Below are positions 1,260-13,614 of a stretch of 64,000 nucleotides of DNA, piece after piece. Numbering within the stretch: the first letter of the stretch is position 1; each line of letters opens with the position of its first letter. Where the stretch lies: IMG/VR virus record IMGVR_UViG_3300012016_000001, positions 1-64,000 of that record; one strand, 5' to 3'. This DNA is from a virus. Its lineage: Duplodnaviria; Heunggongvirae; Uroviricota; Caudoviricetes. Made by a program: the position numbers and the translations under genes. A model generated the notes under the pieces. It did no database searches and was not told the DNA's origin. It was given only the letters and a program-made list of their open reading frames with translations.

Positions 1260-1279
1260 CTGGAGCTTAGGAACAAGTT

Positions 1280-2710: not shown

Positions 2711-2738
2711 GCTTAATTGAATCTAGCAATAGGTTCAT

Positions 2739-2813
2739 GGGTGGTTAGCTCAGCTGGCTGGTAGCAAATGACTGTTAATCATTAGGCCGTGGGTTCGAGT
2801 CCCACACCGCCCT
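2739..2813 (+). tRNA. tRNA-Asn(GTT)
   Basis: Hand-folded cloverleaf: acceptor GGGTGGT/ACCGCCC, anticodon loop CTGTTAA, T-arm GTGGG-TTCGAGT-CCCAC. Confidence 0.85.
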
Positions 2814-2818
2814 CTTAA

Positions 2819-2931
2819 AGGTGTGCTGCGTCCTTATGGACTACTCAGCAAATTTATTTCCTACGATCATAAATTTGTAAAATTAACACGAATGAAGGGT
2901 AAATGGATCAATCGAGGCAGGAGGCACACCT
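2819..2931 (+). ncRNA. CAGCAA-box long-range-helix element, copy E11 (variant with an extra inserted hairpin)
   Basis: AGGTGTGC (2819-2826) pairs with GCACACCT (2924-2931). CAGCAA at 2846-2851 follows a GTCC-ttat-GGAC hairpin. A second 10-bp helix, GAAGGGTAAA (2894-2903) with TTTACCCTTC (2963-2972), interleaves with it. Confidence 0.4.
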
Positions 2932-2976
2932 GTTAAATCAAAATCTGTATTAGAAAGTGAAGTTTACCCTTCTAAT

Positions 2977-3050
2977 GCTCCTTTAGCTCAGTTGGATAGA
3001 GCAATAGCCTTCTAAGCTATGGGTCGTTGGTTCGAATCCAACAGGGAGTA
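2977..3050 (+). tRNA. tRNA-Arg(TCT)
   Basis: Acceptor GCTCCTT/AGGGAGT, D-arm GCTC..GAGC, loop CTTCTAA, T-arm GTTGG-TTCGAAT-CCAAC. Confidence 0.85.
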
Positions 3051-3055
3051 CTAGT

Positions 3056-3178
3056 ATGAAAGAAAAATTAAGACAATGGTTCTATTCAATTAATGTCAAT
3101 AAGTATAGACATTATTTTGAGGAATGGTATTCCAATTTAACTCCTCAACAATTAAGATGGTATGAAAAAATATTCTAG
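3056..3178 (+). CDS. small hypothetical protein (40 aa) ending in TAG; would extend to 3208 if TAG is read through
   Basis: ATG at 3056, TAG at 3176-3178, next in-frame stop TGA at 3206-3208. Confidence 0.3.
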   Translation: MKEKLRQWFYSINVNKYRHYFEEWYSNLTPQQLRWYEKIF

Positions 3179-3210
3179 ATTAGACGAATTAAAGTAAAAA
3201 ATAAGTGAAA

Positions 3211-3834
3211 ATGAAGAAATTTTTAGTACTCATGTTTGCCTTACTAATGGCTATTAGTTTTTAGAGTTGCACCAACTGTAGTGGTAATCCCAGTCTAAAC
3301 AGTCCTGTTAAAACTGAACTTGTAGTGGATCAAGCTATTAGCTTAGATAACTAGTACATGTTCATGAATTATGGTGAGAACTATCGTTGGTTTGAAACTT
3401 GCGTTCTTATGGACGATTTCCTAGATGAGGAAACTGATGGAAGTGTTAATATGGTTGTTAATATCTATCAGGTTGCAAAAGGTGATGATAAATCTTTCGA
3501 TGTTAAAGTATTCAAGTTTCAACACTTAAAAGATGGAACTGTTTTGAAAGATTCTGTTGCTGGTTTTTGGATAGAAGATAATCCTTTGAATGATTCAACT
3601 ATAAAGATTGATTACAAGGAAGCCTTTAATCTTGTTCAAAAGGTAAATCTACCTAAACCACATACTAGAAATGCTATTCTAAGGAATCCTCTTGGTCCTC
3701 TAGACACTAATCCACAGTGGGTGTTCGGAAATATCCGTGAACAAATATGGGTGGATGCAACCACAGGAGAAATTAGAAAATCAAATCCAGCATTTCCTGA
3801 TGAATTAAAAATGCCTCTTGGTGAATGGCCCTGA
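3211..3834 (+). CDS. putative lipoprotein containing two in-frame TAG codons (3262-3264 and 3352-3354)
   Basis: ATG at 3211 encodes MKKFLVLMFALLMAISF-TAG-SC, a signal peptide plus Cys. It is in frame with track ORF 3358-3834, and the only interruptions are two TAGs. Confidence 0.55.
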
Positions 3835-3919
3835 TTTCACTCTTTGAGCTAGTTGGGAAACTAGCATGTAAAACCGATATTTTTCATAAATTATTAGGAG
3901 CTACGAGTTAGCTCCATTT

Positions 3920-3993
3920 GGGGGTAGTGGTGTAAATGGCTAACACATAATCCTTGCAAGATTAAATTTAGGGTTCGAGTCCCTCTACTTCCA
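3920..3993 (+). tRNA. tRNA-Ala(TGC)
   Basis: Acceptor GGGGGTA/TACTTCC with a G3:U70 wobble (Ala identity), loop CTTGCAA, T-loop TTCGAGT. Confidence 0.8.
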
Positions 3994-3997
3994 CATA

Positions 3998-4065
3998 CAG
4001 AAGACACACAGCAAGTGCTTTATAATAAAAAATTTTAGGGAAATTTAATAATTATAAGTCTTCTG
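3998..4065 (+). ncRNA. CAGCAA-box long-range-helix element, copy E2
   Basis: CAGAAGAC (3998-4005) pairs with GTCTTCTG (4058-4065). CAGCAA at 4009-4014. Confidence 0.5.
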
Positions 4066-4070
4066 ATTTT

Positions 4071-4146
4071 GGCTTGTTGAGCCCACTGGAGTGGGAACTT
4101 GACTGTCACTCAAGTAAAACAAAGGGATCGATACCCTTGCAGGCCG
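4071..4146 (+). tRNA. tRNA-Asp(GTC), atypical D-arm and T-loop
   Basis: Acceptor GGCTTGT/GCAGGCC, anticodon arm CTTGA-CTGTCAC-TCAAG, T-arm AAGGG-ATCGATA-CCCTT with A at position 54. Confidence 0.55.
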
Positions 4147-4203
4147 CTAAATCAAAACTAATGAGTCTCTAAAGTATTTTTAAACAATTAAAGTGTAACC
4201 TGT

Positions 4204-4461
4204 ATGATTAACTCGATTCCTATAATGGACCAGAAGATTATTGATAAGTATTTTCCTGGCCAAGCAGTCAAGTCAATCATGCGTACACCGTTAAAGTCTG
4301 TGAGAGGCTATTCACTTGAAGGAAACAAAGGATTGCTTATAAGCACTCCGAAACTTAAACACCTTCTTGCTCTTTATGCTTCTCAGATAGCGTTACAAAC
4401 AAAATGGAATACTTCCCTTAATAAGGAAGGAGACCATTTGATTTGTCTCTTGTACCCTTAA
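4204..4461 (+). CDS. hypothetical protein (85 aa) between tRNA genes
   Basis: Track ORF. It is preceded by the 15-mer AACAATTAAAGTGTA, which recurs at 8315. Coding status is uncertain. Confidence 0.3.
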   Translation: MINSIPIMDQKIIDKYFPGQAVKSIMRTPLKSVRGYSLEGNKGLLISTPKLKHLLALYASQIALQTKWNTSLNKEGDHLICLLYP

Positions 4462-4472
4462 ATGGGTAATAC

Positions 4473-4543
4473 TGGTCCTTAGTTTAGTGGTAAAACGATG
4501 GTCTCCAAAACCATTGTCATCTGTTCGATTCAGATAGGGCCTG
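4473..4543 (+). tRNA. tRNA-Trp(CCA)
   Basis: Anticodon arm ATGGT-CTCCAAA-ACCAT, T-arm ATCTG-TTCGATT-CAGAT. The acceptor has one mismatch in either register. Confidence 0.7.
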
Positions 4544-4576
4544 CAATCACTAAAGGGAAAAGAAACTGTAGTTTAT

Positions 4577-4647
4577 GGGCAATTGTCCGAGCGATTAGGT
4601 GGCGGACTGCAAATCCGTCTAGACAGGTTTGACTCCTGTATTGCCTT
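4577..4647 (+). tRNA. tRNA-Cys(GCA)
   Basis: Acceptor GGGCAAT/ATTGCCT, anticodon arm GCGGA-CTGCAAA-TCCGT, T-arm ACAGG-TTTGACT-CCTGT. Confidence 0.75.
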
Positions 4648-4685
4648 CATCAAATGATGTTGATTTTTTGCATATTAATGACTTT

Positions 4686-4713
4686 AGTGTCTGGTTCGTG
4701 AGAATAGGACACT
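4686..4713 (+). ncRNA. conserved-loop hairpin H1 (loop TGGTTCGTGAGAATAG), 9 nt upstream of a tRNA
   Basis: Stem AGTGTC/GACACT. The loop is shared with H2-H4 while the stems differ. Confidence 0.5.
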
Positions 4714-4721
4714 TTTTACAT

Positions 4722-4793
4722 CGCAGGGTAGAGCAGTGGTAGCTCGCAAGTTTCATAAGCTTGAAGTCGTTAGTTCGAATCTAACCCCTGCAA
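4722..4793 (+). tRNA. initiator-like tRNA-fMet(CAT)
   Basis: CGCAGGG..CCCTGCA gives a C1-A72 mismatch as in bacterial tRNA-fMet, and overall similarity to E. coli tRNA-fMet in the acceptor and D-arm. The anticodon stem CAAGT/GCTTG lacks the three G-C pairs. Confidence 0.75.
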
Positions 4794-4799
4794 CAAATT

Positions 4800-4883
4800 G
4801 GGAGTTTATTCCGTAAGTGGTAGCGGGGCTGACTGTAAATCAGCTTGCTTTTGCATCGGGGTGTTCGACTCACTCAGCTCCCA
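4800..4883 (+). tRNA. tRNA-Tyr(GTA), long variable arm
   Basis: Acceptor GGGAGTT/AGCTCCC, anticodon arm GCTGA-CTGTAAA-TCAGC, long variable arm, T-arm GGGTG-TTCGACT-CACTC. Confidence 0.8.
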
Positions 4884-4887
4884 CTTT

Positions 4888-4959
4888 GGCCTTATAGTTC
4901 TAATGGTAAAACACCGCACTTGTAATGCGGATTTCTCAGTTCGATTCTGGGTAGGGCCT
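4888..4959 (+). tRNA. tRNA-Thr(TGT)
   Basis: Acceptor GGCCTTA/TAGGGCC, anticodon arm CCGCA-CTTGTAA-TGCGG, T-arm CTCAG-TTCGATT-CTGGG. Confidence 0.8.
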
Positions 4960-5027
4960 CTATGCATCGGCTTAGGACTGTTGCGTTACGCTTCCTCATG
5001 GTGATACCTTTAAGGTAGAGGAAGAAA

Positions 5028-5086
5028 GGAGTACACACAGCAATGTTTTTATACAGTTATGATATTGCAGAGTTGTTTTGTACTCC
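5028..5086 (+). ncRNA. CAGCAA-box long-range-helix element, copy E3
   Basis: GGAGTACA (5028-5035) pairs with TGTACTCC (5079-5086). CAGCAA at 5038-5043. Confidence 0.5.
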
Positions 5087-5090
5087 GTAT

Positions 5091-5116
5091 GAGGTTGGCT
5101 TTGTCCAACCTCTTTT
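5091..5116 (+). terminator. terminator-like hairpin abutting the next tRNA
   Basis: GAGGTTGG (5091-5098) pairs with CCAACCTC (5105-5112), followed by TTTT. It could instead be a processing hairpin. Confidence 0.4.
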
Positions 5117-5205
5117 GCCCTCATCGTATATCGGTCAGTGCTGGAAACAGACGATTACCCCTGCCTTTTAAGCAGGTAAGCATGGTTCGACTCCATGTGG
5201 GGGCA
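5117..5205 (+). tRNA. tRNA-Lys(TTT) with about 17-nt expansion of the D-arm (89 nt)
   Basis: Acceptor GCCCTCA/TGGGGGC, anticodon arm CCTGC-CTTTTAA-GCAGG, T-arm CATGG-TTCGACT-CCATG. The D region is GTA-T-ATCG...CTG-GAAA-CAG...CGAT-TAC, an extended helix carrying a GAAA-capped hairpin. Confidence 0.6.
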
Positions 5206-5244
5206 CTATAAAAATCAAGACAATAAAAGTAGTTTTTAAGAAAT

Positions 5245-5376
5245 AAAGAAGTCTTACAGCAATAACAATTAATCTAAGTTTACCAAAAAGCGCTGAACTT
5301 GTAGTTCAATGGTAGAATACCTTTTTATTAAAAAGGAGATGACGGTTCGAATCCGTGTGGCAAAAAAGACTTCTTT
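5245..5376 (+). ncRNA. CAGCAA-box element, copy E4, enclosing a tRNA-like core without a conventional acceptor stem
   Basis: AAAGAAGTCTT (5245-5255) pairs with AAGACTTCTTT (5366-5376). CAGCAA at 5257-5262. Inside are a D-arm GTTC-AATGGTA-GAAT, the hairpin CCTTT-TTATTAA-AAAGG, and a T-arm ACGG-TTCGAAT-CCGT. Confidence 0.5.
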
Positions 5377-5379
5377 TAT

Positions 5380-5452
5380 AGAGCTATCCTCTAATAGGTT
5401 AGGAGACGTGACTGATAATCACGCAATCCCAGTTCAAGTCTGGGTAGCTCTA
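5380..5452 (+). tRNA. tRNA-Ile(GAT)
   Basis: Acceptor AGAGCTA/TAGCTCT, anticodon arm CGTGA-CTGATAA-TCACG, T-arm CCCAG-TTCAAGT-CTGGG. Confidence 0.85.
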
Positions 5453-5526
5453 CAATCGTCCAAACAAAAAGTAATACAAACAAACATTTATCAAACTAAA
5501 CATTCAGCAAAACACAATAAGAATAT

Positions 5527-5550
5527 TTCTGCTTAGGCAGAAGTGTTTTT
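5527..5550 (+). terminator. small rho-independent terminator-like hairpin
   Basis: TTCTGC-ttag-GCAGAA followed by GTGTTTTT. Confidence 0.45.
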
Positions 5551-5558
5551 AGTGTAAA

Positions 5559-5595
5559 CTCCTGGAGTACGTGTACTCTGGGAGGGTTTTGTTTT
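5559..5595 (+). terminator. rho-independent terminator
   Basis: 12-bp stem CTCCTGGAGTAC/GTACTCTGGGAG (with G-U pairs) followed by GGTTTTGTTTT. Confidence 0.65.
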
Positions 5596-5601
5596 GGACT
5601 C

Positions 5602-5631
5602 AGCCTCATCTAGTTGCAAATAGGTGAGGCT
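5602..5631 (+). ncRNA. conserved-loop hairpin H4 (loop TCTAGTTGCAAATAGG), 4 nt upstream of a tRNA
   Basis: Stem AGCCTCA/TGAGGCT. The loop is related to those of H1-H3. Confidence 0.4.
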
Positions 5632-5634
5632 TTA

Positions 5635-5709
5635 GGGGCAGTAGCGCAGGTGGTCAGTTCGCGCCAGTCTGAAAAACTGGAGATCGTGGTTCAACTCCAC
5701 GCTGCCCCA
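5635..5709 (+). tRNA. tRNA-Phe(GAA)
   Basis: Acceptor GGGGCAG/CTGCCCC, D-stem GCGC/GCGC, anticodon arm CCAGT-CTGAAAA-ACTGG, T-arm CGTGG-TTCAACT-CCACG. Confidence 0.85.
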
Positions 5710-5729
5710 CAGAATAGTATATTACTATA

Positions 5730-5798
5730 AAGAGGGCTCACAGCAAATTCATTCTAATTTTTTTCGCCATTATAAGTTTGATTAGCTAAAGCCCTCTT
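5730..5798 (+). ncRNA. CAGCAA-box long-range-helix element, copy E5
   Basis: AAGAGGGCT (5730-5738) pairs with AGCCCTCTT (5790-5798). CAGCAA at 5741-5746. Confidence 0.5.
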
Positions 5799-5805
5799 AA
5801 ATATA

Positions 5806-5869
5806 CAGGGTACAGACAGCAAACTTTATTTTAGGTTCGAACTTTTAACTCGATGTGTCTAGTACCCTG
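5806..5869 (+). ncRNA. CAGCAA-box long-range-helix element, copy E6
   Basis: CAGGGTAC (5806-5813) pairs with GTACCCTG (5862-5869), extended by AGAC/GTCT across a 1-nt bulge. CAGCAA at 5817-5822. Confidence 0.5.
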
Positions 5870-5874
5870 CCTAT

Positions 5875-5947
5875 AAAGGAGTCCTACAGCAAATTTGTCT
5901 TACATTCCGAATTGTCATTTCAGAAGAAAAAGAAAATGGACTCCTTT
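5875..5947 (+). ncRNA. CAGCAA-box long-range-helix element, copy E7
   Basis: AAAGGAGTCC (5875-5884) pairs with GGACTCCTTT (5938-5947). CAGCAA at 5887-5892. Confidence 0.55.
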
Positions 5948-5979
5948 TTAAATGAATAACCAATTATAAAATATATTAA

Positions 5980-6043
5980 GGAGGGCATGCAGCAAAAAGT
6001 TTGTAAATAGCGTGTCTGTGTAACATACTTAACAGTGCCCTCC
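5980..6043 (+). ncRNA. CAGCAA-box long-range-helix element, copy E8
   Basis: GGAGGGCA (5980-5987) pairs with TGCCCTCC (6036-6043). CAGCAA at 5990-5995. Confidence 0.5.
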
Positions 6044-6081
6044 GTTTTTATGAAAATGTTTTAACTATTTAAATAGTAACT

Positions 6082-6876
6082 ATGCAAAAATTAAATGTTT
6101 TATTAGCTCTTAGAGAGAAGTTAGCTAATCGTTATGCCCAAATGAACGGTGACTATACTTCATTCTTTAAGAACAAGCAAGGAGCGTTTCAAGGTACGCT
6201 CAAGACACACTCTCCTTTAGATGGGTATGCAGTAGATTCTACTAAAGTAGCTAATGTGAGAGTTATTACCACAGTCAATGAAAAAATGGATTGGTGGTTG
6301 AAAGAAGCTCTAGACTATTTTAACACAGCTTTGGCTATTGAAGCATCTAATGGGCAAGGTGCTCCTACAGTTGAACTAGAATTCGATGGAAGAACTTACG
6401 GTCCTTTCCCAGCTACTGTGTTATTAAGGCTTCGTGGCATTATAGAGAACGATAAGTTCGCTACAATGCTTGGTAATATTCCTGTTAGAGAGGAGACCAA
6501 AGTTTGGTTGCCTATTGATCAGGATGAAGATTACAAGAGAAGAGGTAATATCTTCCAAACAGAAAGACAAGAAGGTGAGACTCGTACTACAGAAACACAT
6601 GATGAAATCTTGAAAGATCCTAACTTAGATCCAGCTCATCTTCCTTCTAATTACCGTGCTCAAGTAACTCAAGTTAAGAGAACAGTTAAGACTGGAGATT
6701 ATACTACTCAGTCATTTACTGGTGAATGGACACATCAGCAACGTGCTAATCTTTTAAAAAGAAGAAGTGCATTGCTCGATGCTATCAATGTTGCCTTACA
6801 AAAAGTCAATGACCGTGAGGCAATTGAGTGTAAAGTAGATGATCTATTCAGACATCTCATTTATGGACAAAATTAA
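6082..6876 (+). CDS. hypothetical protein embedded in the tRNA array
   Basis: 264-aa ORF with no recognised motif. Confidence 0.55.
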   Translation: MQKLNVLLALREKLANRYAQMNGDYTSFFKNKQGAFQGTLKTHSPLDGYAVDSTKVANVRVITTVNEKMDWWLKEALDYFNTALAIEASNGQGAPTVELEFDGRTYGPFPATVLLRLRGIIENDKFATMLGNIPVREETKVWLPIDQDEDYKRRGNIFQTERQEGETRTTETHDEILKDPNLDPAHLPSNYRAQVTQVKRTVKTGDYTTQSFTGEWTHQQRANLLKRRSALLDAINVALQKVNDREAIECKVDDLFRHLIYGQN

Positions 6877-7010
6877 ACTTTAAATATTGACCCTAGCTTT
6901 AGCTTCACACTTTAGCTTTACAGAATCCTAGATAGTAAGCATCAATGTTGTGGTCAAAAGCTTTAGCGAAGTTGATTACAGTGTATTACTTACCTTGACG
7001 ACTATTATCG

Positions 7011-7154
7011 CTCGGTAATCGCGGGTTCAAATCCCGTCCCGCCCTCAAACAGAGTTCTTCTGAACTCTGCCCTTTCATGTTACTTTAGTCATTGCTTGTG
7101 AAAGTAGTGACTATATGGGCGGGTCGTCTAGTGGTTAAGACTCCGGGTTTTTAA
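7011..7154 (+). tRNA. circularly permuted tRNA-Lys(UUU)-like gene: 3' half (7011-7045) lies upstream of the 5' half (7117-7154)
   Basis: The 3' half is CTCGG-TAATC-GCGGG-TTCAAAT-CCCGT-CCCGCCC-T. The 5' half is GGGCGGG-TC-GTCT-AGTGGTTA-AGAC-T-CCGGG-TTTTTAA. Acceptor and anticodon stems are complementary only between the two halves. Neither half has a partner in the normal gene order. Confidence 0.55.
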
Positions 7155-7228
7155 GCATCAGCATTATAGGGTAAAATGTAATACGCAAAAGTTCATGGAT
7201 TAGTAAGACGGATTTGTCGCTAATCCTA

Positions 7229-7301
7229 GGGAGAGTAGCTCAGTGGTTAAAGCAATAGTCGCTAAAACTATCGATCGAGGGTTCGAATCCCTCCTCTCCT
7301 G
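7229..7301 (+). tRNA. amber-suppressor tRNA, anticodon CTA (reads UAG), with G at position 33
   Basis: A 73-nt canonical cloverleaf: acceptor GGGAGAG/CTCTCCT, anticodon arm ATAGT-CGCTAAA-ACTAT, T-arm GAGGG-TTCGAAT-CCCTC. Confidence 0.75.
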
Positions 7302-7364
7302 CTTATGTTACCATATTATATTATTTTTTCGTTAGTATCTGTCTGTGAAGATCGATACTAAGTC

Positions 7365-7459
7365 AGCGGGTTATGCAAATGGTAAAGCAGTAGTTTATCT
7401 ATGTGAGTACGTATAGTTCTAGGCCAGTACTCTTGGGAGTTCGAGTCTCTCACCCGCTA
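7365..7459 (+). tRNA. 95-nt tRNA-like gene, anticodon undetermined
   Basis: Perfect acceptor AGCGGGT/ACCCGCT, D-arm TGC-AAATGGTAAA-GCA, T-arm GGGAG-TTCGAGT-CTCTC. The 44-nt central region has no canonical 5-7-5 anticodon arm. Its best helices are GAGTAC/GTACTC and CTATG-(8 nt)-TATAG. Confidence 0.4.
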
Positions 7460-7498
7460 CAAATTAATTTAAAACAAATTGGGTAAAAAATAACCTAT

Positions 7499-7646
7499 AA
7501 AGGAGACGAACAGCAATTTCAACGTTTTGCATTTTGGTTGCCGAAGTTAGGGTTCGAATCCCTAGTCCTCCCTAATGGGAGGATTAGTGTAACTGGTAAG
7601 TGTGAAGTTAAGCACACGATAGCACGCGTTTTTGTTGGTCTCCTTT
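7499..7646 (+). ncRNA. CAGCAA-box element, copy E9, enclosing tRNA-Ser-like pieces in permuted order
   Basis: AAAGGAGAC (7499-7507) pairs with GTCTCCTTT (7638-7646). CAGCAA at 7511-7516. Inside, the T-arm TAGGG-TTCGAAT-CCCTA and GTCCTCC are followed after 6 nt by GGAGGAT, the same acceptor as the tRNA-Ser at 7851. Confidence 0.45.
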
Positions 7647-7850
7647 TAAAATATTTTCCCTCTTAAAGGTTTTGCTAGGAATCTAGCTTATCAGGGTATG
7701 CTCTAAGCTCTTAGTTACGGTGCACACGTTCTGAGTTTGAGTAGTGTATTATAAGTTCACCCATAACTGCAGATAAAAGTGAATGAAATTTACACGTCCT
7801 TAGGATTACTAAGAGGGATAAGGGAGAGATTTATTAATCTCTCCCCGAAT

Positions 7851-7940
7851 GGAGGATTAAGCCTAATTGCTAAGGCAGCGGTCTTGAAAACCGCCAGTAG
7901 TCGGTAAAACGACGTGTGGGTTGGAGTCCCACATCCTCCT
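7851..7940 (+). tRNA. tRNA-Ser(TGA), long variable arm
   Basis: Acceptor GGAGGAT/ATCCTCC, anticodon arm GCGGT-CTTGAAA-ACCGC, long variable arm, T-arm GTGGG-TTGGAGT-CCCAC. Confidence 0.85.
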
Positions 7941-7942
7941 CT

Positions 7943-8233
7943 ATGAGTAAATGTAAGACAAGTAAATGTAATGCAGCATGTTGTTACAACATCTGCTTTA
8001 AAGAGAATGAGCTTGAACGATTTTCTGTACGTATTGTAAATCCTGTTATAGATACTATTCCACTTCCTTGGGGAACTATGGCTAAAACTAATGAGAATAT
8101 GGATTTAAATAAATGTCCATTTCTTAGAAAGGATTTAAAGTGCAATATATACGAAAATCGTCCAGAGGTGTGTAGGTTGATGGGAGTTATTCCTAAGATG
8201 CCATGTAAGTATTTAAAGGAGAGTAAACCTTGA
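7943..8233 (+). CDS. YkgJ-like CxxCxxCC zinc/iron-chelating domain protein
   Basis: Motifs KCNAACCY and CPFL..KCNIYENRPEVCR. ATG at 7943; the track ORF N-terminus (7916) overlaps the tRNA-Ser. Confidence 0.6.
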   Translation: MSKCKTSKCNAACCYNICFKENELERFSVRIVNPVIDTIPLPWGTMAKTNENMDLNKCPFLRKDLKCNIYENRPEVCRLMGVIPKMPCKYLKESKP

Positions 8234-8303
8234 GGGTGATAGGGGCTGTTTGCTAAACAGTACGCTCGCTTCGGCGGGTGCGGATCGAGACCGCTGCTCT
8301 CCT
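8218..8303 (+). tRNA. tRNA-Ser(GCT), long variable arm; overlaps the last 16 nt of the upstream CDS
   Basis: Acceptor GGAGAGT/GCTCTCC, anticodon arm GCTGT-TTGCTAA-ACAGT, variable arm containing CGC-TTCG-GCG, T-arm TGCGG-ATCGAGA-CCGCT (49-65 mismatch). Confidence 0.65.
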
Positions 8304-8328
8304 CGCTAACTTTTAACAATTAAAGTGT

Positions 8329-8445
8329 ATGGAAGATTTAAATTACAAGTATGAAAAACCTGATAAACCAATTCAGGTTAATGTTCCAAGTAAACCACGA
8401 TTTAAAGTCAACCAAGAAGGTGGCGACACGCGTTGGTATACATGA
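8329..8445 (+). CDS. possible 38-aa ORF (coding status doubtful)
   Basis: ATG directly after the repeated 15-mer AACAATTAAAGTGTA. The region downstream looks structured rather than coding. Confidence 0.2.
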   Translation: MEDLNYKYEKPDKPIQVNVPSKPRFKVNQEGGDTRWYT

Positions 8446-8669
8446 ACTCCGACCATCCACAATGTCGTAAACTTAGGTGGCGTAGGAAAAGAAACTACTT
8501 TCCTGTTAGGTACGAGAACCTAATTTAGCTTTGTCAGTTTCGCTGAGGAAGAAACGACTATGTGACCTAGTCAGAAAATTAGGCAGAACTGTGGACGCAC
8601 AGCGAATAGAAGGTGGGTAAGATTGCGACTTGAGAACTCTATATGTCTTATAAACCTGCCTTCTCTTTA

Positions 8670-8743
8670 GGGCCTCTAGCACAATAGGTTAGTGCAACAG
8701 ACTCATAATCTGTAGGTTCCGAGTTCAAGCCTCGGGGGGCCCA
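8670..8743 (+). tRNA. tRNA-Met(CAT), either elongator or tRNA-Ile2 type
   Basis: Acceptor GGGCCTC/GGGGCCC, D-stem GCAC/GTGC, anticodon arm ACAGA-CTCATAA-TCTGT, T-arm CCGAG-TTCAAGC-CTCGG. Confidence 0.85.
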
Positions 8744-8759
8744 CTAAACACCTTTAAAT

Positions 8760-9554
8760 ATGAAATTAATAAGTAAAGAACGGACTGGCGGAAATCCAGC
8801 TATTGAAATTGAAATGGACAAGGTGGATAACCTAAGAGTTTTAGATATTATCCATTCTTTGGTTGATGCTCAAGGTAGAATCTATCCAATACCATTCTCC
8901 TTTATAAAGAATGATAATGAGGATACCTTGAACGTGGTAATGCAAGTGTTAGGTTTGTATACCTTTCCAACTCTTGAACTAACTGAATGGTTAGAAGAAC
9001 AAATAGATGAATACACTGAAGGTTACGAGCCTGCTATAGAAATATGTGCAGGAAGTGGATGGATAGGTAGACAACTTCAAATACCTACTACTGATGCCAA
9101 AATCCAAGAAGATCCTAAAGTGCGGAATCTATATTTAATGAGTAGTCAAATTCCTATGATATATCAGGATGATGTTGAAAAGATAGAAGCTCTTGAGGCA
9201 GTTAAAAAGTATAATCCTGAATATGTAATAGGTAGCTACGTTACTTCTACTGAAAGAATTAAGAAAAATAATAAAAGAAAGACTATCTATTTAAATATAC
9301 CTTTACCAAGCGGAGGATTTATAAAACAAAATATGATGGAGCTTGCAGAAAAGGAGATTCCGTTTTTTGGAGTTAATGTTCAAGCTATAATAAGGAGAGT
9401 GCATAAGACTTTCTTAGTTATAAATGAAAGAACCCATTATAACGAATCTTACTTGAGTATGCCACATAAGTCATATAAGTTTCCTTGGCTTGTAACTAGA
9501 GGTGATATTAAAAAAGGTCGTGTTTTAATATATGAGAACAAAGGATGGACTTGA
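8760..9554 (+). CDS. hypothetical protein, possible SAM-dependent methyltransferase fold
   Basis: AIEICAGSGWIG resembles methyltransferase motif I (weak). Confidence 0.45.
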   Translation: MKLISKERTGGNPAIEIEMDKVDNLRVLDIIHSLVDAQGRIYPIPFSFIKNDNEDTLNVVMQVLGLYTFPTLELTEWLEEQIDEYTEGYEPAIEICAGSGWIGRQLQIPTTDAKIQEDPKVRNLYLMSSQIPMIYQDDVEKIEALEAVKKYNPEYVIGSYVTSTERIKKNNKRKTIYLNIPLPSGGFIKQNMMELAEKEIPFFGVNVQAIIRRVHKTFLVINERTHYNESYLSMPHKSYKFPWLVTRGDIKKGRVLIYENKGWT

Positions 9555-9775
9555 AGTTTAGACGTTGCAAATGTTCACTTTCTCCAAAGGATATGGTTTT
9601 TACTTTTAAAACTCCAGTTAAACTCTGCGAGTATGAAGGTAAACAGTATATCATTATGGGGAGATTGAAAGAAACAAATAGAGAAAGTAAGAAATTATTA
9701 GAATTTCTATTTGGAGACGAAATTGTGTATACAAAACAATTAATATTAGTTCCAAGAGATTTCTTTTTCATCTAA
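9545..9775 (+). CDS. hypothetical protein
   Basis: 76-aa ORF overlapping the upstream stop by 10 nt. Confidence 0.4.
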   Translation: MDLKFRRCKCSLSPKDMVFTFKTPVKLCEYEGKQYIIMGRLKETNRESKKLLEFLFGDEIVYTKQLILVPRDFFFI

Positions 9776-9834
9776 GGGAGATGTGTCAGCAATTATTAAC
9801 TTTCTTATTGGTTTTAGTTTTTGGTTAGTCTCCC
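9776..9834 (+). ncRNA. CAGCAA-box long-range-helix element, copy E10
   Basis: GGGAGA (9776-9781) pairs with TCTCCC (9829-9834). CAGCAA at 9787-9792. Confidence 0.4.
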
Positions 9835-9841
9835 GTAACCT

Positions 9842-9879
9842 GGGGATAGGGTAAATGTTTACCCTTCCCCTATAATTTT
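9842..9879 (+). terminator. terminator-like hairpin
   Basis: GGGGATAGGGTAA pairs with TTACCCTTCCCC (one bulge), followed by tataatttt. Confidence 0.45.
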
Positions 9880-9886
9880 CTTAATA

Positions 9887-10696
9887 ATGTTAAATTTTGG
9901 TTTAAAACATTGTCATTCTTCTAATTGGCACAAGAAGTTTCCAAGAAAGAAGATTGAACATGAGGACCCAAAGCATCTAGGGATGCATCAACACCTTAGA
10001 CTACGTAATGAGTGGTTTGAGGGAAGACAAGGTTTTCTTTCCATTAAAGAGATTCGTAAGTTCTTGGAAGCAAATCTTGGTAAGAATGTAGATGAAGTAT
10101 TCTCTGAATTTGTTAAACGTGCTAAAAGATATAAGCATGATGTTAGTCTTAGAGAAAGATTCTTTGCACAGTTAGACCCAGACACTAGGTATGGTTCTGG
10201 TTATACTTTAGATATACAAAACAAAATAGTAAAGGTTAAAGAAATTAAAGTTCACAGGATACGTGACAACGAAGCTCGTGTATTTAATGAAGTAGCTTAT
10301 CCTTATAATATTAATCAGTATTTAAGAGAAACGGAACTTACTTATATAGGAGATTTTTATCTAAGAACTAGACATTGGAATTGGGTAAAAGCACCTGTGT
10401 ATGTATGTAGTAAGGAATGGTATAACTTAGTACTGACATATGGAGTAGGCAAGAAATATACTAAAATGAATGAAATGCAAAGGATACATATATTCTTTAA
10501 TAAGTATATTGCTGTAGGAGTTCCAAAGAAAGGATATGCTACTCGTGCTGAACCTACTGGTAATACTATATGTATCTGTAATCACGAAATGCGAGAGTAT
10601 AAACACGTTAAGTATCCATATACAACAATGGATTGCGAGTCTGATTATATCTTCCTTACTAAGGGAGGAGAAGATACTAATTGGTACGTATATTAA
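9887..10696 (+). CDS. hypothetical protein
   Basis: 269-aa ORF. Confidence 0.55.
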   Translation: MLNFGLKHCHSSNWHKKFPRKKIEHEDPKHLGMHQHLRLRNEWFEGRQGFLSIKEIRKFLEANLGKNVDEVFSEFVKRAKRYKHDVSLRERFFAQLDPDTRYGSGYTLDIQNKIVKVKEIKVHRIRDNEARVFNEVAYPYNINQYLRETELTYIGDFYLRTRHWNWVKAPVYVCSKEWYNLVLTYGVGKKYTKMNEMQRIHIFFNKYIAVGVPKKGYATRAEPTGNTICICNHEMREYKHVKYPYTTMDCESDYIFLTKGGEDTNWYVY

Positions 10697-10704
10697 ATAG
10701 ATTA

Positions 10705-11063
10705 GGGCCTGACCGGATTTGACGGCTTCTGAAGGTAAATCACTCACTCATGACTGATGGAAAGACATCAAAAAAATTAAACGGAGAAAATAACACAACT
10801 CCCCGCGCTAAAGTTGTTAGCATCGTTTATAGAGCTGCAGCTTGATCGACGCCTGGTAAAAGGGTAACCAAGGAACATAATACCCTTAATTTCTTTATTT
10901 TTAGCCAATAATATTCTGCGCCTATCGGAGATATAACTAAATAGGCTGGTGGAAAGTCAGACAACAGTCTGCCCCAGAGAAGGAAACTCTTATAAAACCT
11001 ATGAGTGTAAGAATGTGATGAGAATAGGATTCGCGGACGAGGGTTCGACTCCCTCCAGGTCCA
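10705..11063 (+). ncRNA. ssrA: tmRNA (SsrA), one-piece
   Basis: The 5' end GGGCCTGACCGGATTTGACGG and the 3' end GGACGAGGGTTCGACTCCCTCCAGGTCCA closely resemble bacterial tmRNA termini. Acceptor GGGCCTG/CAGGTCC has a G3:U70 pair. Internal tag ORF at 10783-10845. Confidence 0.88.
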
Positions 11064-11317
11064 CTTGTTAAATAATGTTAAATTTATTGTGGATTTATAT
11101 TGTTATTTATATATTTAATCCTGTAAAAACGTTCATTATAGTAAAGATAAAATGTTCCAGCACTCACGGCTACAAACTGAGTGACTAGTGTTCAACAAGA
11201 GCGCAGTATTACTATCACAGCTGAACTATAGAGGCAGTGAAGACTTTATGGTCGAACTGAGGGCAGTTTAGTCTGGAACAATCTAAGCTGTTCTCTTTAC
11301 TTGTGAAATTCATAAAT

Positions 11318-11345
11318 ACCTTTCGGTTCGTGAGAATAGAAAGGT
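11318..11345 (+). ncRNA. conserved-loop hairpin H2 (loop GGTTCGTGAGAATA), 4 nt upstream of a tRNA
   Basis: Stem ACCTTTC/GAAAGGT. The loop core is identical to H1. Confidence 0.5.
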
Positions 11346-11348
11346 TAT

Positions 11349-11421
11349 GGCGGAATGATGTTTAATGGTAGCATGCTACTTTTGGGAAGTAGTCGAGTCG
11401 GTTCGAGTCCGGTTTCTGCCA
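11349..11421 (+). tRNA. tRNA-Pro(TGG)
   Basis: Acceptor GGCGGAA/TTCTGCC, anticodon arm CTACT-TTTGGGA-AGTAG, T-loop TTCGAGT. Confidence 0.8.
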
Positions 11422-11429
11422 CTATTGTT

Positions 11430-11502
11430 GCAACGTTAGTGTTAATGGTTAGCAAGAGGCCTTGCCAAGGCTTAAGAGTGAGTTCGAATCTCATACGCTG
11501 CT
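11430..11502 (+). tRNA. tRNA-Gly(GCC)
   Basis: Acceptor GCAACGT/ACGCTGC (one A-C mismatch), anticodon arm AGGCC-TTGCCAA-GGCTT, T-arm GTGAG-TTCGAAT-CTCAT. Confidence 0.75.
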
Positions 11503-11646
11503 CTCCACCGTCGAAATGGCTGAGACGTTAAGTAATTGCCAGACAGATACCCTTACTAAAGCAACAAGGGCGTGAATTATAGGTAACCAACGAGAAGAGA
11601 ACCTTTTGAAAGAGCCCCAACCCTAAGTGGAACTGGGTGGGGACCT

Positions 11647-11717
11647 GCGGGATTCGTTCAATGGTAGGACACTAGCCTTCCAAGCCTGTGATGTCGGTTC
11701 GATTCCGGTATCCCGCA
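11647..11717 (+). tRNA. tRNA-Gly(TCC) with a weak anticodon stem
   Basis: Acceptor GCGGGAT/ATCCCGC, loop CTTCCAA. The stem CTAGC/GCCTG has two central mismatches. Confidence 0.6.
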
Positions 11718-11887
11718 CCTACAGACTATTATTGCTGCAGAAGTAATAGTATCGAAGCAGCCCATACCCTCCGTCCGGCTGGGAGAAATCGTTCGTTCCG
11801 TACCTGAGCACCGAGGTATCTGTAGAAGCGTTAGTTAGAGTTACCTATGAGGGACGAGATGCCCTGTTGAAACTCGAAGGTGTACAT

Positions 11888-11961
11888 GGTGTAGATGGCC
11901 GAGTGGTTTAGGCGCAAGTTTGTGGCACTTGTTTACGCAGGTTCGAATCCTGTTCTACACC
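11888..11961 (+). tRNA. tRNA-His(GTG) with a G-1:C73 pair
   Basis: G-1 plus acceptor GTGTAGA/TCTACAC plus C73. Anticodon arm CAAGT-TTGTGGC-ACTTG, T-arm GCAGG-TTCGAAT-CCTGT. Confidence 0.85.
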
Positions 11962-11979
11962 CAATTAAATATTTTAATT

Positions 11980-12183
11980 ATGAAAGAAAGAATAAGAAAG
12001 ATTATTGAAAGAATTACTGAACGTAAAATTACAAATGATGATGAGCCTATAGAGATGGATAGTATAGACACTATGGAAGTTATAGTAAGTCTAGAGTATG
12101 AATATGACATCCATATAGATACTATTATAAAGGAGGATTTATCATTAAATGATTACGTTGAGTTAGTTAGGAGCATGGTGTAA
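11980..12183 (+). CDS. acyl carrier protein-like small protein
   Basis: 67 aa with EMDSIDTMEVIVSLEYEY, which matches the ACP DSLD phosphopantetheine-site helix. The track ORF N-terminus overlaps tRNA-His. Confidence 0.55.
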   Translation: MKERIRKIIERITERKITNDDEPIEMDSIDTMEVIVSLEYEYDIHIDTIIKEDLSLNDYVELVRSMV

Positions 12184-12252
12184 TGGTAGCACATCTGACT
12201 TTGACTCAGAAGGGAGCGTGAGCCACTGCAGGTTCGAGTCCTGCTGCTCCTA
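12169..12252 (+). tRNA. tRNA-Gln(TTG) with a 17-nt variable region; overlaps the last 15 nt of the ACP-like CDS
   Basis: Acceptor AGGAGCA/TGCTCCT, anticodon arm TCTGA-CTTTGAC-TCAGA, variable region AGGGAGCGTGAGCCACT (GC-GTGA-GC mini-hairpin), T-arm GCAGG-TTCGAGT-CCTGC. Confidence 0.7.
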
Positions 12253-12290
12253 CTTGTCTCCATTAAGGAGAATTTTAAAGGTGTTTGTTC

Positions 12291-12320
12291 AACTCACTGG
12301 TTTGCGAAAATAGGTGAGTT
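12291..12320 (+). ncRNA. conserved-loop hairpin H3 (loop TGGTTTGCGAAAATAG), 6 nt upstream of a tRNA
   Basis: Stem AACTCAC/GTGAGTT. Confidence 0.5.
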
Positions 12321-12325
12321 TAAAT

Positions 12326-12410
12326 GCTGCGTTCGACTAGTGGCTTAGGTCACAAGACTTTCAATCTTGTAGGATGAAAATCCTCAGGGGTTCGAATCCC
12401 CTACGCAGTA
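12326..12410 (+). tRNA. tRNA-Glu(TTC) with a 16-nt variable arm
   Basis: Acceptor GCTGCGT/ACGCAGT, anticodon arm CAAGA-CTTTCAA-TCTTG, variable arm T-AGGAT-GAAA-ATCCT-C, T-arm AGGGG-TTCGAAT-CCCCT. Confidence 0.75.
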
Positions 12411-12414
12411 CTAA

Positions 12415-12488
12415 GGGAGCTTAGTTCAGTGGTTTAGAACACTGCCCCTACAAGGCAGGAGTCGATAGTTCGAATCTATCAGTTCCCA
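12415..12488 (+). tRNA. tRNA-Val(TAC) with C at position 33
   Basis: Acceptor GGGAGCT/AGTTCCC, anticodon arm CTGCC-CCTACAA-GGCAG, T-arm GATAG-TTCGAAT-CTATC. Confidence 0.8.
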
Positions 12489-12515
12489 CGACAACTTTGT
12501 AAATCAACTGGGAAA

Positions 12516-12556
12516 AGCCTGGACAGTGCGAAATATCATTGTCTAGGCTTTTATTG
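12516..12556 (+). terminator. rho-independent terminator closing the tRNA array
   Basis: AGCCTGGAC (12516-12524) pairs with GTCTAGGCT (12541-12549), followed by TTTTATT. Confidence 0.65.
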
Positions 12557-12591
12557 TGTTATGTTTATCTTAATATTAGTACTTTGCCTTG

Positions 12592-12627
12592 TTTGGTTTA
12601 TTTACCAATTATTAGAGATTAGATTTG
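12592..12627 (+). promoter_or_regulatory. possible Bacteroidota-type promoter (-33 TTTG, -7 TAGATTTG)
   Basis: TAGATTTG at 12620-12627 matches TAnnTTTG. An upstream TTTG lies at 12592-12595, a spacing somewhat longer than the consensus. Confidence 0.25.
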
Positions 12628-12688
12628 ATATGCCTTTTATATGGTTTACATGGAAAGGTAATAGAAATTATATTAGATTATTTTAACT

Positions 12689-13108: not shown

Positions 13109-13150
13109 ACGGGGGTGCCAGGAAAATCCTGGTGCCCCCGTCAACTTTTG
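13109..13150 (+). terminator. rho-independent terminator-like hairpin
   Basis: 15-bp stem ACGGGGGTGCCAGGA/TCCTGGTGCCCCCGT followed by a weak T-run. Confidence 0.55.
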
Positions 13151-13154
13151 TTAA

Positions 13155-13364: not shown

Positions 13365-13380
13365 TACTTGTGGTTACTGT

Positions 13381-13611: not shown

Positions 13612-13614
13612 GTT

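Follow-up and report, generated by a model that had tools for sequence, protein, structure and literature searches.

Phage-encoded tmRNAs have been reported from several groups, including Bxz1-like mycobacteriophages, Bacillus phage G, huge phages, and Melnitz/pelagimyophages, where they are proposed to sustain or exploit host translation (PMC4131195; PMC7162821; PMC9004378). Their genes were present in 402 of 18,146 phage genomes (PMC9004378), and the modal tag length in the tmRNA database is 10 residues (PMC11915505). In the literature cataloguing phage tmRNAs no experimental test of any of them was found, and no description of a crAss-like phage with a tmRNA turned up in a search made mostly of titles and abstracts. 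One-piece tmRNAs typically, if not universally, contain four pseudoknots (PK1-PK4), and in most tmRNAs translation resumes at an alanine codon. Long tags are known from Mollicutes, whose ssrA tags of about 27 residues are degraded by Lon and are thought to be adapted to this protease in organisms without ClpXP; long tags can be functional degradation signals.

The window analysed here is a 64-kb stretch of a ~194-kb metagenomic contig that has one-strand gene blocks and a replication module. The earlier note, made from the sequence, had proposed that it carries a phage-encoded tmRNA with bacterial tmRNA termini, a G3:U70 acceptor pair, and a long, divergent tag. The gene and its neighbours are as follows:

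10705..11063 (+): one-piece tmRNA gene, 359 nt to the discriminator A, CCA not encoded (ARAGORN, Rfam, 19 homologues)
2739..12489 (+): array of 22 tRNA genes around the tmRNA, for 18 amino acids plus an amber suppressor (ARAGORN, Rfam)
7229-7302 (+): amber-suppressor tRNA within the array, anticodon CTA (ARAGORN)
9887..10696 (+): conserved 269-aa ORF ending 8 nt 5' of the tmRNA (44 homologues, synteny)
12513..12552 (+): terminator-like 16-bp hairpin directly 3' of the last tRNA (consensus match only)

The segment from 10705 to 11063 is a tmRNA. ARAGORN placed the gene at 10705..11064 on the + strand, with the tag GENNTTPRAKVVSIVYRAAA followed by a stop and the coding part at positions 79..141 of the gene (10783..10845). 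The Rfam tmRNA model RF00023 scored 68.4 bits (gathering score 47; E 1.6e-24) over 10705..11066, and a score above this threshold over the full model (1-374) excludes a chance match. The two programs thus bore out a full-length gene at 10705-11063 (+), the sequences quoted for its termini are present at the 10705 and 11063 ends, and the G3:U70 pair is formed by G 10707 and T 11060, with A 11063 as the discriminator. Relatives were reached through the neighbouring 269-aa protein and an invariant block at PK3, which together recovered 19 distinct homologous tmRNAs on related contigs, always in the same location; all 16 intact relatives that were scanned reached the RF00023 gathering score (54-79 bits). 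Direct searches were less productive. A blastn search with the tmRNA against 50,697 deposited phage records gave no match, a megablast search with 20 kb of window sequence in the same number of deposited phage genomes gave only trivial matches of ~50-115 nt, and IMG/VR contained no match to exact 21-nt probes taken from the tag region and the 5' end of the tmRNA; the corresponding 3'-end probe found only unrelated phage tmRNAs there.

The proposal that the gene belongs to a phage was upheld by its surroundings. All long ORFs of the window lie on one strand and include a replication module, the PolA protein shares 50.9% identity with its counterpart in a Bacteroides crAss-like phage (the best matches, at 34-51%, are all to Bacteroides crAss-like phages), and IMG/VR lists the relatives as viral contigs, among them one of 192.6 kb. 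Assignment to Crassvirales is provisional, as it is taken from PolA alone and the structural genes lie outside the window; the host is probably a member of the Prevotellaceae or other Bacteroidales, and the virus a phage of rumen or gut. Wherever the contig of a relative spans the syntenic site, the tmRNA is there, even where identity of the neighbouring protein has fallen to 46%, and this synteny is kept in more than 15 contigs. The 269-aa ORF adjoins the tmRNA in all relatives; it had no match in Pfam or PHROG, and its AF2 model (pLDDT 78.8) gave no convincing structural match. Other neighbours are concerned with the maintenance of translation, namely the 22 tRNAs (none of which encodes CCA), a polynucleotide kinase-phosphatase, an RNA ligase, and a Ro60-like RNA-binding protein. 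The hairpin at 12513..12552 may mark the end of a tRNA/tmRNA transcription unit, and a promoter scan with a sigma-70 consensus, which is not of the Bacteroidota type, showed no enrichment.

Integration into tmRNA genes is frequent, and fragments of ssrA are known from prophages (PMC9004378; PMC11915505), so that a host tmRNA or attachment-site fragment joined to phage sequence by prophage integration or misassembly had to be weighed. This origin is effectively refuted, and we give it next to no credence. The gene is full length, sits within a tRNA array between conserved phage ORFs, and is found at the same position in independent assemblies and many relatives; moreover, it has a tag of its own unlike the host tag, and outside the tRNA-like domain and the resume context it is only ~28% identical to host tmRNAs.

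The elements of the RNA, as supported by alignment of the relatives, are:

10705..10711 (+): acceptor stem, 5' strand GGGCCUG with G3 at 10707, pairing with 11056-11062
10723..10750 (+): helix 2, 5' strand (H2a 10723-10729, H2c 10739-10743, H2d 10745-10750), pairing with 11002-11035
10755..10770 (+): hairpin at the PK1 position, UGAUG-GAAAGA-CAUCA (compensatory variants)
10778..10782 (+): frame-setting context UAAAC (U -5, A -4) just 5' of the resume codon (conserved)
10783..10845 (+): tag reading frame GGA...GCU UGA, encoding GENNTTPRAKVVSIVYRAAA, stop at 10843-10845 (ARAGORN, Rfam alignment, codon variation)
10852..10886 (+): pseudoknot 2 (S1 10852-10857 with 10867-10873; S2 10861-10866 with 10881-10886; covariation)
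10914..10946 (+): pseudoknot 3 (S1 10914-10918 with 10926-10930; S2 10920-10925 with 10941-10946; alignment)
10948..10990 (+): PK4-region helices (10948-10952 with 10972-10975; inner hairpin 10958-10962 with 10967-10971; hairpin 10976-10979 with 10987-10990), partly supported
11002..11035 (+): helix 2, 3' strand (H2d 11002-11007, H2c 11015-11019, H2a 11028-11035; alignment)
11039..11055 (+): T arm GAGGG-UUCGACU-CCCUC (compensatory changes in 4 of 5 pairs, 100% of cells paired)
11056..11063 (+): acceptor stem, 3' strand CAGGUCC (U70 at 11060) and discriminator A 11063 (alignment, 3'-end sequence)

The structure was examined in an alignment of 18 sequences with 66 proposed base pairs. Across it 96.3% of pair cells form, compared with 37-48% in slid controls, and compensatory double changes occur at 26 of the 66 pairs; for four of five measures, none of 500 shuffles matched the observed values. 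The tRNA-like domain is complete, with a T arm, no anticodon arm, and a 7-bp acceptor stem built from both RNA ends, in which G3:U70 is invariant (18 of 18 sequences) and positions 4-6 show compensatory changes among the relatives (three pairs). The long helix 2 that links this domain to the ring of pseudoknots and mRNA-like sequence is present and covaries, with double changes in five of the seven H2a pairs and a change of AUCAC/GUGAU to AUUAC/GUAAU in H2c. Within the ring, PK2 shows strong covariation (S2 is paired in 100% of cells, with compensatory changes in five of six pairs, and S1 has one compensatory pair), and it is missing altogether in two relatives (L025 and L027). PK3 is the most conserved block among the relatives and nearly invariant; in L027 its S2 is altered on both sides (GCCCACC/GGUGGGC). 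At the PK1 position the hairpin covaries (UGUUG/CAACA, GAACG/CGUUC, and GAAUG/CAUUC in relatives), and a search for a second pseudoknot stem there found none, so PK1 appears to be reduced to a hairpin. The PK4 region contains supported helices, among them a hairpin in which AGAG/CUCU varies to CGAG/CUCG and GGAG/CUCC. No stable helix 5 was found, the local fold of 10775-10860 being no better than that of shuffled sequence (z -0.7).

The earlier note had placed the tag between GGA 10783 and TGA 10843-10845, and this frame held: ARAGORN gave the same tag, and in the covariance-model alignment the resume codon of the Rfam model falls on GGA 10783. The tag has no start codon and ends in RAAA, with an Ala-Ala terminus. 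In E. coli the tag frame is set by U(-5) and A(-4), which are U85 and A86 (PMC2481249), and here A[AU]UAAA[CU] precedes the resume codon in all tmRNA relatives. Codon variation across relatives gives further backing. Among class G relatives the extra codon states are 10 synonymous and 2 non-synonymous, and the variable states fall 0/2/12 on the three codon positions; nearly all variation within the tag thus sits at third codon positions, which indicates that the long tag is translated and that selection acts on the peptide. A shorter tag of 12 residues, AKVVSIVYRAAA, would result if translation resumed at the internal GCU (10807) and the GENNTTPR codons were untranslated upstream sequence. An alanine codon would be the usual choice for a tmRNA, AKVV opens the tag in class A relatives, and the start chosen by ARAGORN is unstable among relatives and wrong by homology in two of them (L035 and L166). 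The internal start is nevertheless very unlikely, for the A[AU]UAAA[CU] motif with U-5 and A-4 directly precedes GGA, the distance from GGA to the PK1 hairpin equals that of the class A GCU resume codon, Bacteroidota hosts have a Gly resume codon in the same context, and variation in the GEN..TPR part is confined to third positions or N/T exchanges, while the model resume codon aligns to GGA as given above.

Comparison with host tmRNAs supports both the suggested Bacteroidota affinity of the tag start and the divergence of the rest. A degenerate pattern for GENNYALAA followed by a stop was found in at least 120 genomes, nearly all of them Bacteroidota among the matches listed, and ARAGORN called GENNYALAA at 11 of the 12 loci sampled, among them those of Segatella, Prevotella, Parabacteroides, Muribaculaceae, Flavobacterium, and Sphingobacterium. 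A full-text literature search for GENNYALAA found no paper, so the statement on the host tag rests on the genome scan. Relative to Segatella copri, which has this tag, 48 of 53 positions of the tRNA-like domain and 21 of 25 of the resume context are identical, whereas the rest of the phage RNA (helix 2, the pseudoknots, and the middle) is unalignable at ~28% identity. The phage and the Segatella/Prevotella RNAs are both one-piece and share G3:U70, the GGAUUUGACGG segment, the T loop, the A-rich upstream context, the Gly resume codon, the GENN start, and the Ala-Ala end. They differ in size (359 nt in the phage, ~395 nt in the hosts), in that the phage RNA shows only a hairpin at PK1, and in the location of the phage gene in a phage tRNA array. 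The tags share the GENN start and differ in length and end, the phage tag having 20 residues rather than 9, an insert-like core TPRAKVVSIVYR, and RAAA in place of ALAA.

Compared with earlier phage tmRNAs, this one is similar in being a complete ssrA gene in a large phage near tRNA genes (the earlier examples are from lytic phages and are often tRNA-adjacent). It thus adds to what is already known of phage tmRNAs and does not amount to a new kind of system; its long tag is conserved in the clade. It differs in lineage, being crAss-like with a likely Bacteroidales host, and in the clade-wide tag family with peptide-level conservation documented here. Some huge phages carry SmpB, and none was seen in the present window. 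In a sample of unrelated large IMG/VR phages, tmRNAs also lie in tRNA arrays and have odd tags of 8-29 residues. The Mollicutes tags resemble the phage tag in being far above the usual 10 residues; lineage and sequence are unrelated, and Bacteroidota hosts use a short tag.

In the relatives L036/L043 and L027/L028 a group I intron (RF00028, 91 and 84 bits) interrupts the tmRNA gene; these intron forms are in phage genomes, and the gene of the window has no intron. The intron lies between T-loop nucleotides 2 and 3 and conforms at its boundaries to the -1 U and omega G rules. This site corresponds to internucleotide subsite 3, found only in the class Bacteroidia by PMC11915505; the phage introns are 864-865 nt long, while tmRNA introns above 700 bp are absent from that study. 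An intron ORF of 206 aa on the opposite strand had no significant Pfam match, and its candidacy as an HNH endonuclease was not confirmed by Pfam.

In light of these data, the locus very probably encodes a functional one-piece tmRNA of Bacteroidota ancestry that would give a ~194-kb crAss-like rumen or gut phage extra rescue capacity through host-dependent trans-translation, and general ribosome rescue is the most economical reading of its function. The RNA would share a transcript with the tRNAs around it and be trimmed by the tRNA-processing enzymes of the host, after which the CCA end would have to be added because none is encoded. We infer that host alanyl-tRNA synthetase would charge it with alanine through G3:U70, and that host SmpB and EF-Tu would bind it through the tRNA-like domain, which has ~90% identity to the Segatella domain. 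Where a ribosome has stalled at the end of an mRNA that is broken or lacks a stop, the tmRNA would donate its alanine, translation would resume at GGA 10783 (positioned by UAAAC) and stop at UGA 10843, adding (A)GENNTTPRAKVVSIVYRAAA, and the ribosome would be recycled, leaving a product with a C-terminal Ala-Ala, the type of ssrA-tag end that is recognised by host proteases. Dependence on host SmpB is assumed from a window that is about one third of the genome. No SmpB, Clp, or Lon was present among Pfam matches for the ~70 window ORFs of at least 100 aa, and a tblastn search of the window with an approximate E. coli SmpB query, a weak test, found nothing; the host-like tRNA-like domain is consistent with use of the host protein. 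The likely benefit to the phage, added ribosome-rescue capacity during infection, fits the neighbouring translation-maintenance genes described above.

The earlier note had also raised rescue from recoded messages. Under this explanation the suppressor tRNA would read UAG late in infection, and the tmRNA would clear ribosomes that run on to the 3' ends of messages, the stalled ones being host or early mRNAs. The amber-suppressor tRNA lies in the same array, one relative (L037) has a CTA tRNA and another (L024) a TCA tRNA, and recoding is documented in crAss-like phages (bioRxiv 10.1101/2021.08.26.457843; PMC9523058). Tag stops among the relatives are UAA or UGA and never UAG, and in the three suppressor-bearing loci the tag stop differs from the suppressed codon. 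However, at 33% GC the use of UAA and UGA as stops would be expected in any case, and three suppressor loci are an anecdote. ORF coverage of the window is 77% under the standard code and 80% with TAG or TGA as sense, and ~20 kb of flanking sequence is uninterrupted in the standard code, including opposite-strand ORFs of 1535 aa and at least 965 aa. As the 64-kb window and its flanks read well in the standard code, and coverage is alike under the alternatives, the link to recoded messages is unsupported and was not adopted. The suppressor tRNA is circumstantial, and we regard a role in recoding as quite unlikely.

General rescue does leave one feature aside, in that a conserved internal tag (TPR, AKVV) is not explained by a simple model of extra rescue capacity. 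The tags of all relatives are 15-29 residues long, with a common TPR/AKVV core and an Ala-Ala end; in the window, the C-terminal part reads ...TPRAKVVSIVYRAAA. The claim of a long, divergent tag was therefore sound, at 20 residues against 9 in Bacteroidota hosts and with RAAA against their ALAA. N-terminal modules (GENxN, GEIDF, AKVVxM, AKEIDF) are swapped among relatives, and the ...AKVVS...[FY]R[AV]AA core persists despite these swaps. It is conceivable, although on balance unlikely, that the tmRNA is functional and its tag a phage-evolved signal rather than a generic degradation tag or drifted host degron, with the TPR/AKVV core read by a phage adaptor, a particular host protease, or another factor distinct from the standard ssrA-tag proteases. 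The fate or turnover of tagged proteins would then be altered, for example by rapid, adaptor-mediated recycling of amino acids, protection, or sorting. Internal residues under peptide-level selection, with P and R codons that vary only synonymously, point this way, as do the retained core and a length above both the 9 residues of the hosts and the modal 10 (PMC11915505). On the other hand, the C-terminal Ala-Ala, a hallmark of degradation tags, is kept in all tags, a candidate adaptor or protease was not found in the window, and long tags occur in other sampled phage tmRNAs, so that length alone is not special. Re-routing of tagged products, as the earlier note had suggested, is possible, since the conserved core leaves room for it even though every tag still ends in Ala-Ala. 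If the tag were such a signal, the phage would control the fate of proteins tagged during infection, for example through faster or selective destruction of truncated host proteins to recycle their amino acids or through discrimination of phage-tagged from host-tagged products, and this control would be tuned by which N-terminal module a tag carries (the host-like GENN, or AKVV or EIDF in exchange).

For annotation, these relatives show that ARAGORN tag calls can err and that intron-split phage tmRNAs are missed altogether. For the biology of the group, a whole clade of abundant large gut and rumen phages keeps a tmRNA in which the parts that face the host mimic those of the host, while the tag is distinct, longer, and under selection. 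The clade offers a natural series of tag variants and intron-split genes for experiments, and with it a testable case of whether phages merely add rescue capacity or may also redirect protein quality control.

The element at 10705-11063 is called as a tmRNA by two routes. ARAGORN places the gene at 10705..11064(+), with the tag GENNTTPRAKVVSIVYRAAA* encoded by 10783..10845, and the Rfam tmRNA model RF00023 matches 10705..11066 over its whole length (1-374), scoring 68.4 bits (gathering score 47, E 1.6e-24). The acceptor stem, GGGCCUG/CAGGUCC, contains the G3:U70 pair (10707/11060) and is followed by a discriminator A at 11063; an encoded CCA is absent from the tmRNA and from all 22 surrounding tRNA genes. 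The Rfam alignment sets the resume codon of the model on GGA 10783. Given these matches, far beyond chance, and a check of the sequence itself, the coordinates, termini and tag proposed in the earlier note are correct, and its reading of the element as a phage tmRNA with a long, divergent tag is upheld overall.

Features of the gene neighbourhood (L164 is a contig under comparison)
15-809: gene for a Ro60-like RNA-binding protein (DUF2828 + DUF7788/vWA_Ro60; PHROG 850 'RNA-binding protein'), 3' part of a longer gene
2739-12489, + strand: tRNA array of 22 genes, including an amber suppressor, around the tmRNA (ARAGORN, Rfam)
9887-10696: 269-aa ORF, ending 8 nt before the tmRNA
12513-12552: terminator-like hairpin after the last tRNA
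47500-48708, 49159-50553, 52750-53649: RNA-repair set of ATP-dependent ligase, RNA ligase (PHROG 968) and polynucleotide kinase-phosphatase (AAA_33 + HAD_PNKP; coordinates of this last gene from the L164 gene table)
~59920-63093: NAD-salvage/regeneration cluster of metallophosphoesterase, isochorismatase-family (nicotinamidase-like) protein, ADP-ribosylglycohydrolase and NAPRTase
L164 11425-13388: continuation of the NAD cluster, with NAD synthase, nucleotidyltransferase (CTP_transf_like), NUDIX and YqeY

The 269-aa ORF is conserved and lies invariably directly 5' of the tmRNA. Its 44 metagenomic homologues are mostly 46-75% identical to it, with three at ~31-38%, and a tmRNA follows directly in every contig that reaches far enough. 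No family could be assigned to the ORF, and structural comparison yielded nothing convincing, just a weak winged-helix-like resemblance; a functional tie to the tmRNA is possible but unsupported. Further relatives were recovered with the invariant block of pseudoknot PK3 as a probe (12 contigs from JGI metagenomes and two from IMG/VR) and with a tag-derived probe (one more IMG/VR contig), bringing the distinct tmRNAs to 19. All 16 intact relatives scanned passed the Rfam threshold, at 54-79 bits. Contig names (XIEF21, STEW19 and others) suggest a ruminant origin for several.

When the tag is started at the first codon after a conserved A[AU]UAAA[CU], coherent tags are obtained in all members of the family.

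Tags of the family by start and form
Class G (glycine start): GENNTTPRAKVVSIVYRAAA (window), GENTNTPRAKVVSIVYRAAA, GENTNTPRAKVVSIAYRAAA, GENNNTPRAKVVSMSFAYRAAA, GENTNTPRAKVVSMSFAYRAAA, GEIDFTPRAKVVSMSFAYRAAA
Class A (AKVV start): AKVVNMTPRASAVAFRVAA, AKVVNMTPRANVVAFRVAA, AKVVTMTPRAAVAIAA, AKVVVMTPRATMAIAA, AKVVVMTPRATVAIAA, AKVVVMTPRTVAIAA, AKVISIAPRTVAIAA, AKVVVMTPRVSAASVRIAA
Longer form: AKEIDFSKVAGRTAKVVSMNVGFRAAA, AKEIDFKNRMGSGKPATVISMSFSHRMAA

All of these tags end in Ala-Ala, followed by UAA or UGA and never by UAG. In two relatives the resume codon given by ARAGORN is wrong by homology: the program reads AASVRIAA in L035 (2371-2723) and GKTSKQLNGEIDF... in L166 (4443-4839), against AKVVVMTPRVSAASVRIAA and GEIDFTPRAKVVSMSFAYRAAA by the family rule. 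Tag calls made automatically in phage tmRNAs should be checked by comparison. At -5 and -4 the resume context carries U and A, which correspond to U85 and A86 of E. coli; frame choice there depends mainly on A86 (PMC2481249). The variation among codons matches that predicted for a translated frame. Class G has 10 synonymous against 2 non-synonymous extra codon states, with variable states distributed 0/2/12 over the three codon positions; class A has 9 against 7, with a distribution of 5/2/13. Within the internal TPR motif, the proline (CCC/CCU/CCA) and arginine (CGC/CGU) codons change synonymously only. This codon-position pattern speaks against resumption at an internal GCU, which would produce a 12-residue tag; the conserved upstream context sits at GGA, and the hosts too resume at a glycine codon, making such a start very improbable.

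The RNA structure is supported by covariation. A structure of 66 pairs, built from RNAalifold output and manual inspection, was tested on an alignment of 18 tmRNAs, in which 96.3% of pair cells form, compared with 37-48% when partners are slid by 1-3 columns. Changes on both sides occur in 26 of the 66 pairs, and none of 500 shuffles matched the observed value for four of five measures. At least six complementary versions of the acceptor stem and five of the T arm are found across the family, within which G3:U70 is invariant. Covariation is seen in five of seven pairs of helix 2a and in five of six of PK2 stem 2, where all cells are paired; PK2 is absent from two relatives, L025 and L027. PK3 is nearly invariant, with both sides changed in L027. 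The PK1 position holds a covarying hairpin, at which a second stem was sought and not found, and support in the PK4 region is for helices, not for a particular topology. Tag classes and types of tRNA-like domain do not go together in fixed pairs: GGGGACG acceptors, for example, are found with both classes, which points to recombination inside the clade.

The GENN start of the tag had been likened to Bacteroidota tags, and the host data bear this out. A degenerate pattern for GENNYALAA* matched at least 120 genomes; nearly all of the matches listed were Bacteroidota, and ARAGORN confirmed GENNYALAA in 11 of 12 sampled loci, including Segatella copri, Prevotella, Parabacteroides, Muribaculaceae, Flavobacterium and Sphingobacterium. 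Compared with the S. copri tmRNA, the phage RNA is identical at 48 of 53 positions in the tRNA-like domain and at 21 of 25 in the resume context (host AAUUAAUU-GGC GAA AAU AAC, phage AAUUAAAC-GGA GAA AAU AAC), whereas the remaining RNA shows ~28% identity. The RNA resembles that of the host in the parts that would have to fit host AlaRS, SmpB, EF-Tu and the ribosome; the remainder, including most of the tag, is far diverged. Such a pattern favours an old acquisition from Bacteroidota and a Bacteroidales host, probably one of the Prevotellaceae, over recent capture or an assembly artefact.

The window (33.5% GC, with long ORFs nearly all on the + strand) belongs to a metagenomic contig of 194,556 bp, whose ENA record name says gut metagenome (SRR948121); the genome also exists in another assembly, of 193,962 bp. 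Its replication and nucleotide-metabolism module comprises RNase H, two helicases, NrdD, ATP-dependent ligase, PolA, ThyX and dUTPase, together with a sigma-70-type factor, polynucleotide kinase-phosphatase, RNA ligase and NAD-salvage genes. The best tblastn matches of PolA are crAss-like phages of Bacteroides throughout (top, Kolpuevirus 'frurule', 50.9% identity; the rest ~35%), and relatives are filed as viral in IMG/VR, among them a contig of 192,624 bp. Gene context, PolA and these relatives together indicate that the tmRNA is phage-borne, in what appears to be a large crAss-like phage; the family assignment, resting on PolA, is provisional. A host or attachment-site artefact is effectively excluded. 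The NrdD Pfam family matches two separate ORFs, the 599-aa ORF at 37774-39573 and a neighbouring one, and 26374-27429 holds a LAGLIDADG-type ORF; split genes or mobile endonucleases may be the reason. The NAD cluster may counter NAD-depleting host defences.

The Rfam scan of the window gave no group I intron. Such an intron (RF00028, 91 and 84 bits) does interrupt the T loop of the tmRNA in two lineages of relatives.

Intron-split tmRNA genes, outside the window
L036 1497-2730 (= L043)
L027 4712-5938 (= L028)

The insertion lies between T-loop nucleotides 2 and 3 (GGCGGUU|...G|CGAAUCC, with -1 U and omega G). The introns measure 864-865 nt and carry, on the opposite strand, a conserved 206-aa ORF with no significant Pfam match; ARAGORN missed these genes. 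The paper on the 2025 tmRNA database saw introns at this subsite in class Bacteroidia alone and reports none above 700 bp (PMC11915505), a length that the phage introns exceed.

The record of phage ssrA genes goes back to the Bxz1-like mycobacteriophages and Bacillus phage G (PMC4131195). Both tmRNA and SmpB occur in huge phages (PMC7162821), and one survey found tmRNA genes in 402 of 18,146 phage genomes (PMC9004378). Among the tags of the 2025 tmRNA database, those of 10 residues are the commonest (PMC11915505). Unrelated IMG/VR phages that we sampled share the placement of a tmRNA in a tRNA array, with tags of 8-29 residues. Blastn of the window tmRNA against deposited phage genomes returned nothing similar, and among the listed papers that mention both tmRNA and crAss-like phages, judged mostly by title and abstract, none appears to describe a tmRNA in such a phage. 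Phage tmRNA as such is already known; what is added here is a clade-wide, selected family of long tags, with intron-split relatives.

Ordinary trans-translation supplied by the phage is the most likely function, for which we infer charging, SmpB use, proteolysis and a fitness benefit. The tmRNA would be made together with the tRNA array, processed and given its CCA end, then charged with alanine by host AlaRS, with host SmpB as partner; alanine and the 20-residue tag would be added, and the ribosome let go at UGA. The conserved Ala-Ala end suggests degradation of tagged products. No SmpB, Clp or Lon genes were seen in the window, about a third of the genome. Plain rescue does not account for the conservation of the internal core of the tag, and for this reason we keep, as an unlikely reading, that the tag is specialised and recognised by a dedicated partner. 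That the tmRNA is tied to stop-codon recoding is decidedly doubtful: suppressor tRNAs occur in three arrays (CTA, amber, at 7229-7302 of the window and at 2215-2286 of L037; TCA, opal, at 7353-7427 of L024), but no in-frame stop recoding was found in the window and 20 kb of flanks, which would place any recoded genes in other parts of the genome.

Several tRNAs of the window are oversized (Val-GAC, 90 nt, 5117-5206; Gln, 85 nt, 12169-12253; Glu, 86 nt, 12326-12411), relatives have Gln, Glu and Pro tRNAs of 84-91 nt, and two further weak tRNA-like matches lie at 5302-5357 and 7365-7459; long variable arms or small insertions may be responsible. The Ro60-like gene heads the array, with counterparts at L014 1-923 and L165 7980-9955, and Rfam found no Y-RNA-like partner in positions 1-14000. 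The ligase, RNA ligase and kinase-phosphatase are of the type used by phages for mending cleaved tRNAs, which fits translation maintenance. The neighbouring tRNAs, polynucleotide kinase-phosphatase, RNA ligase and Ro60-like protein point to a theme of sustaining translation during infection.
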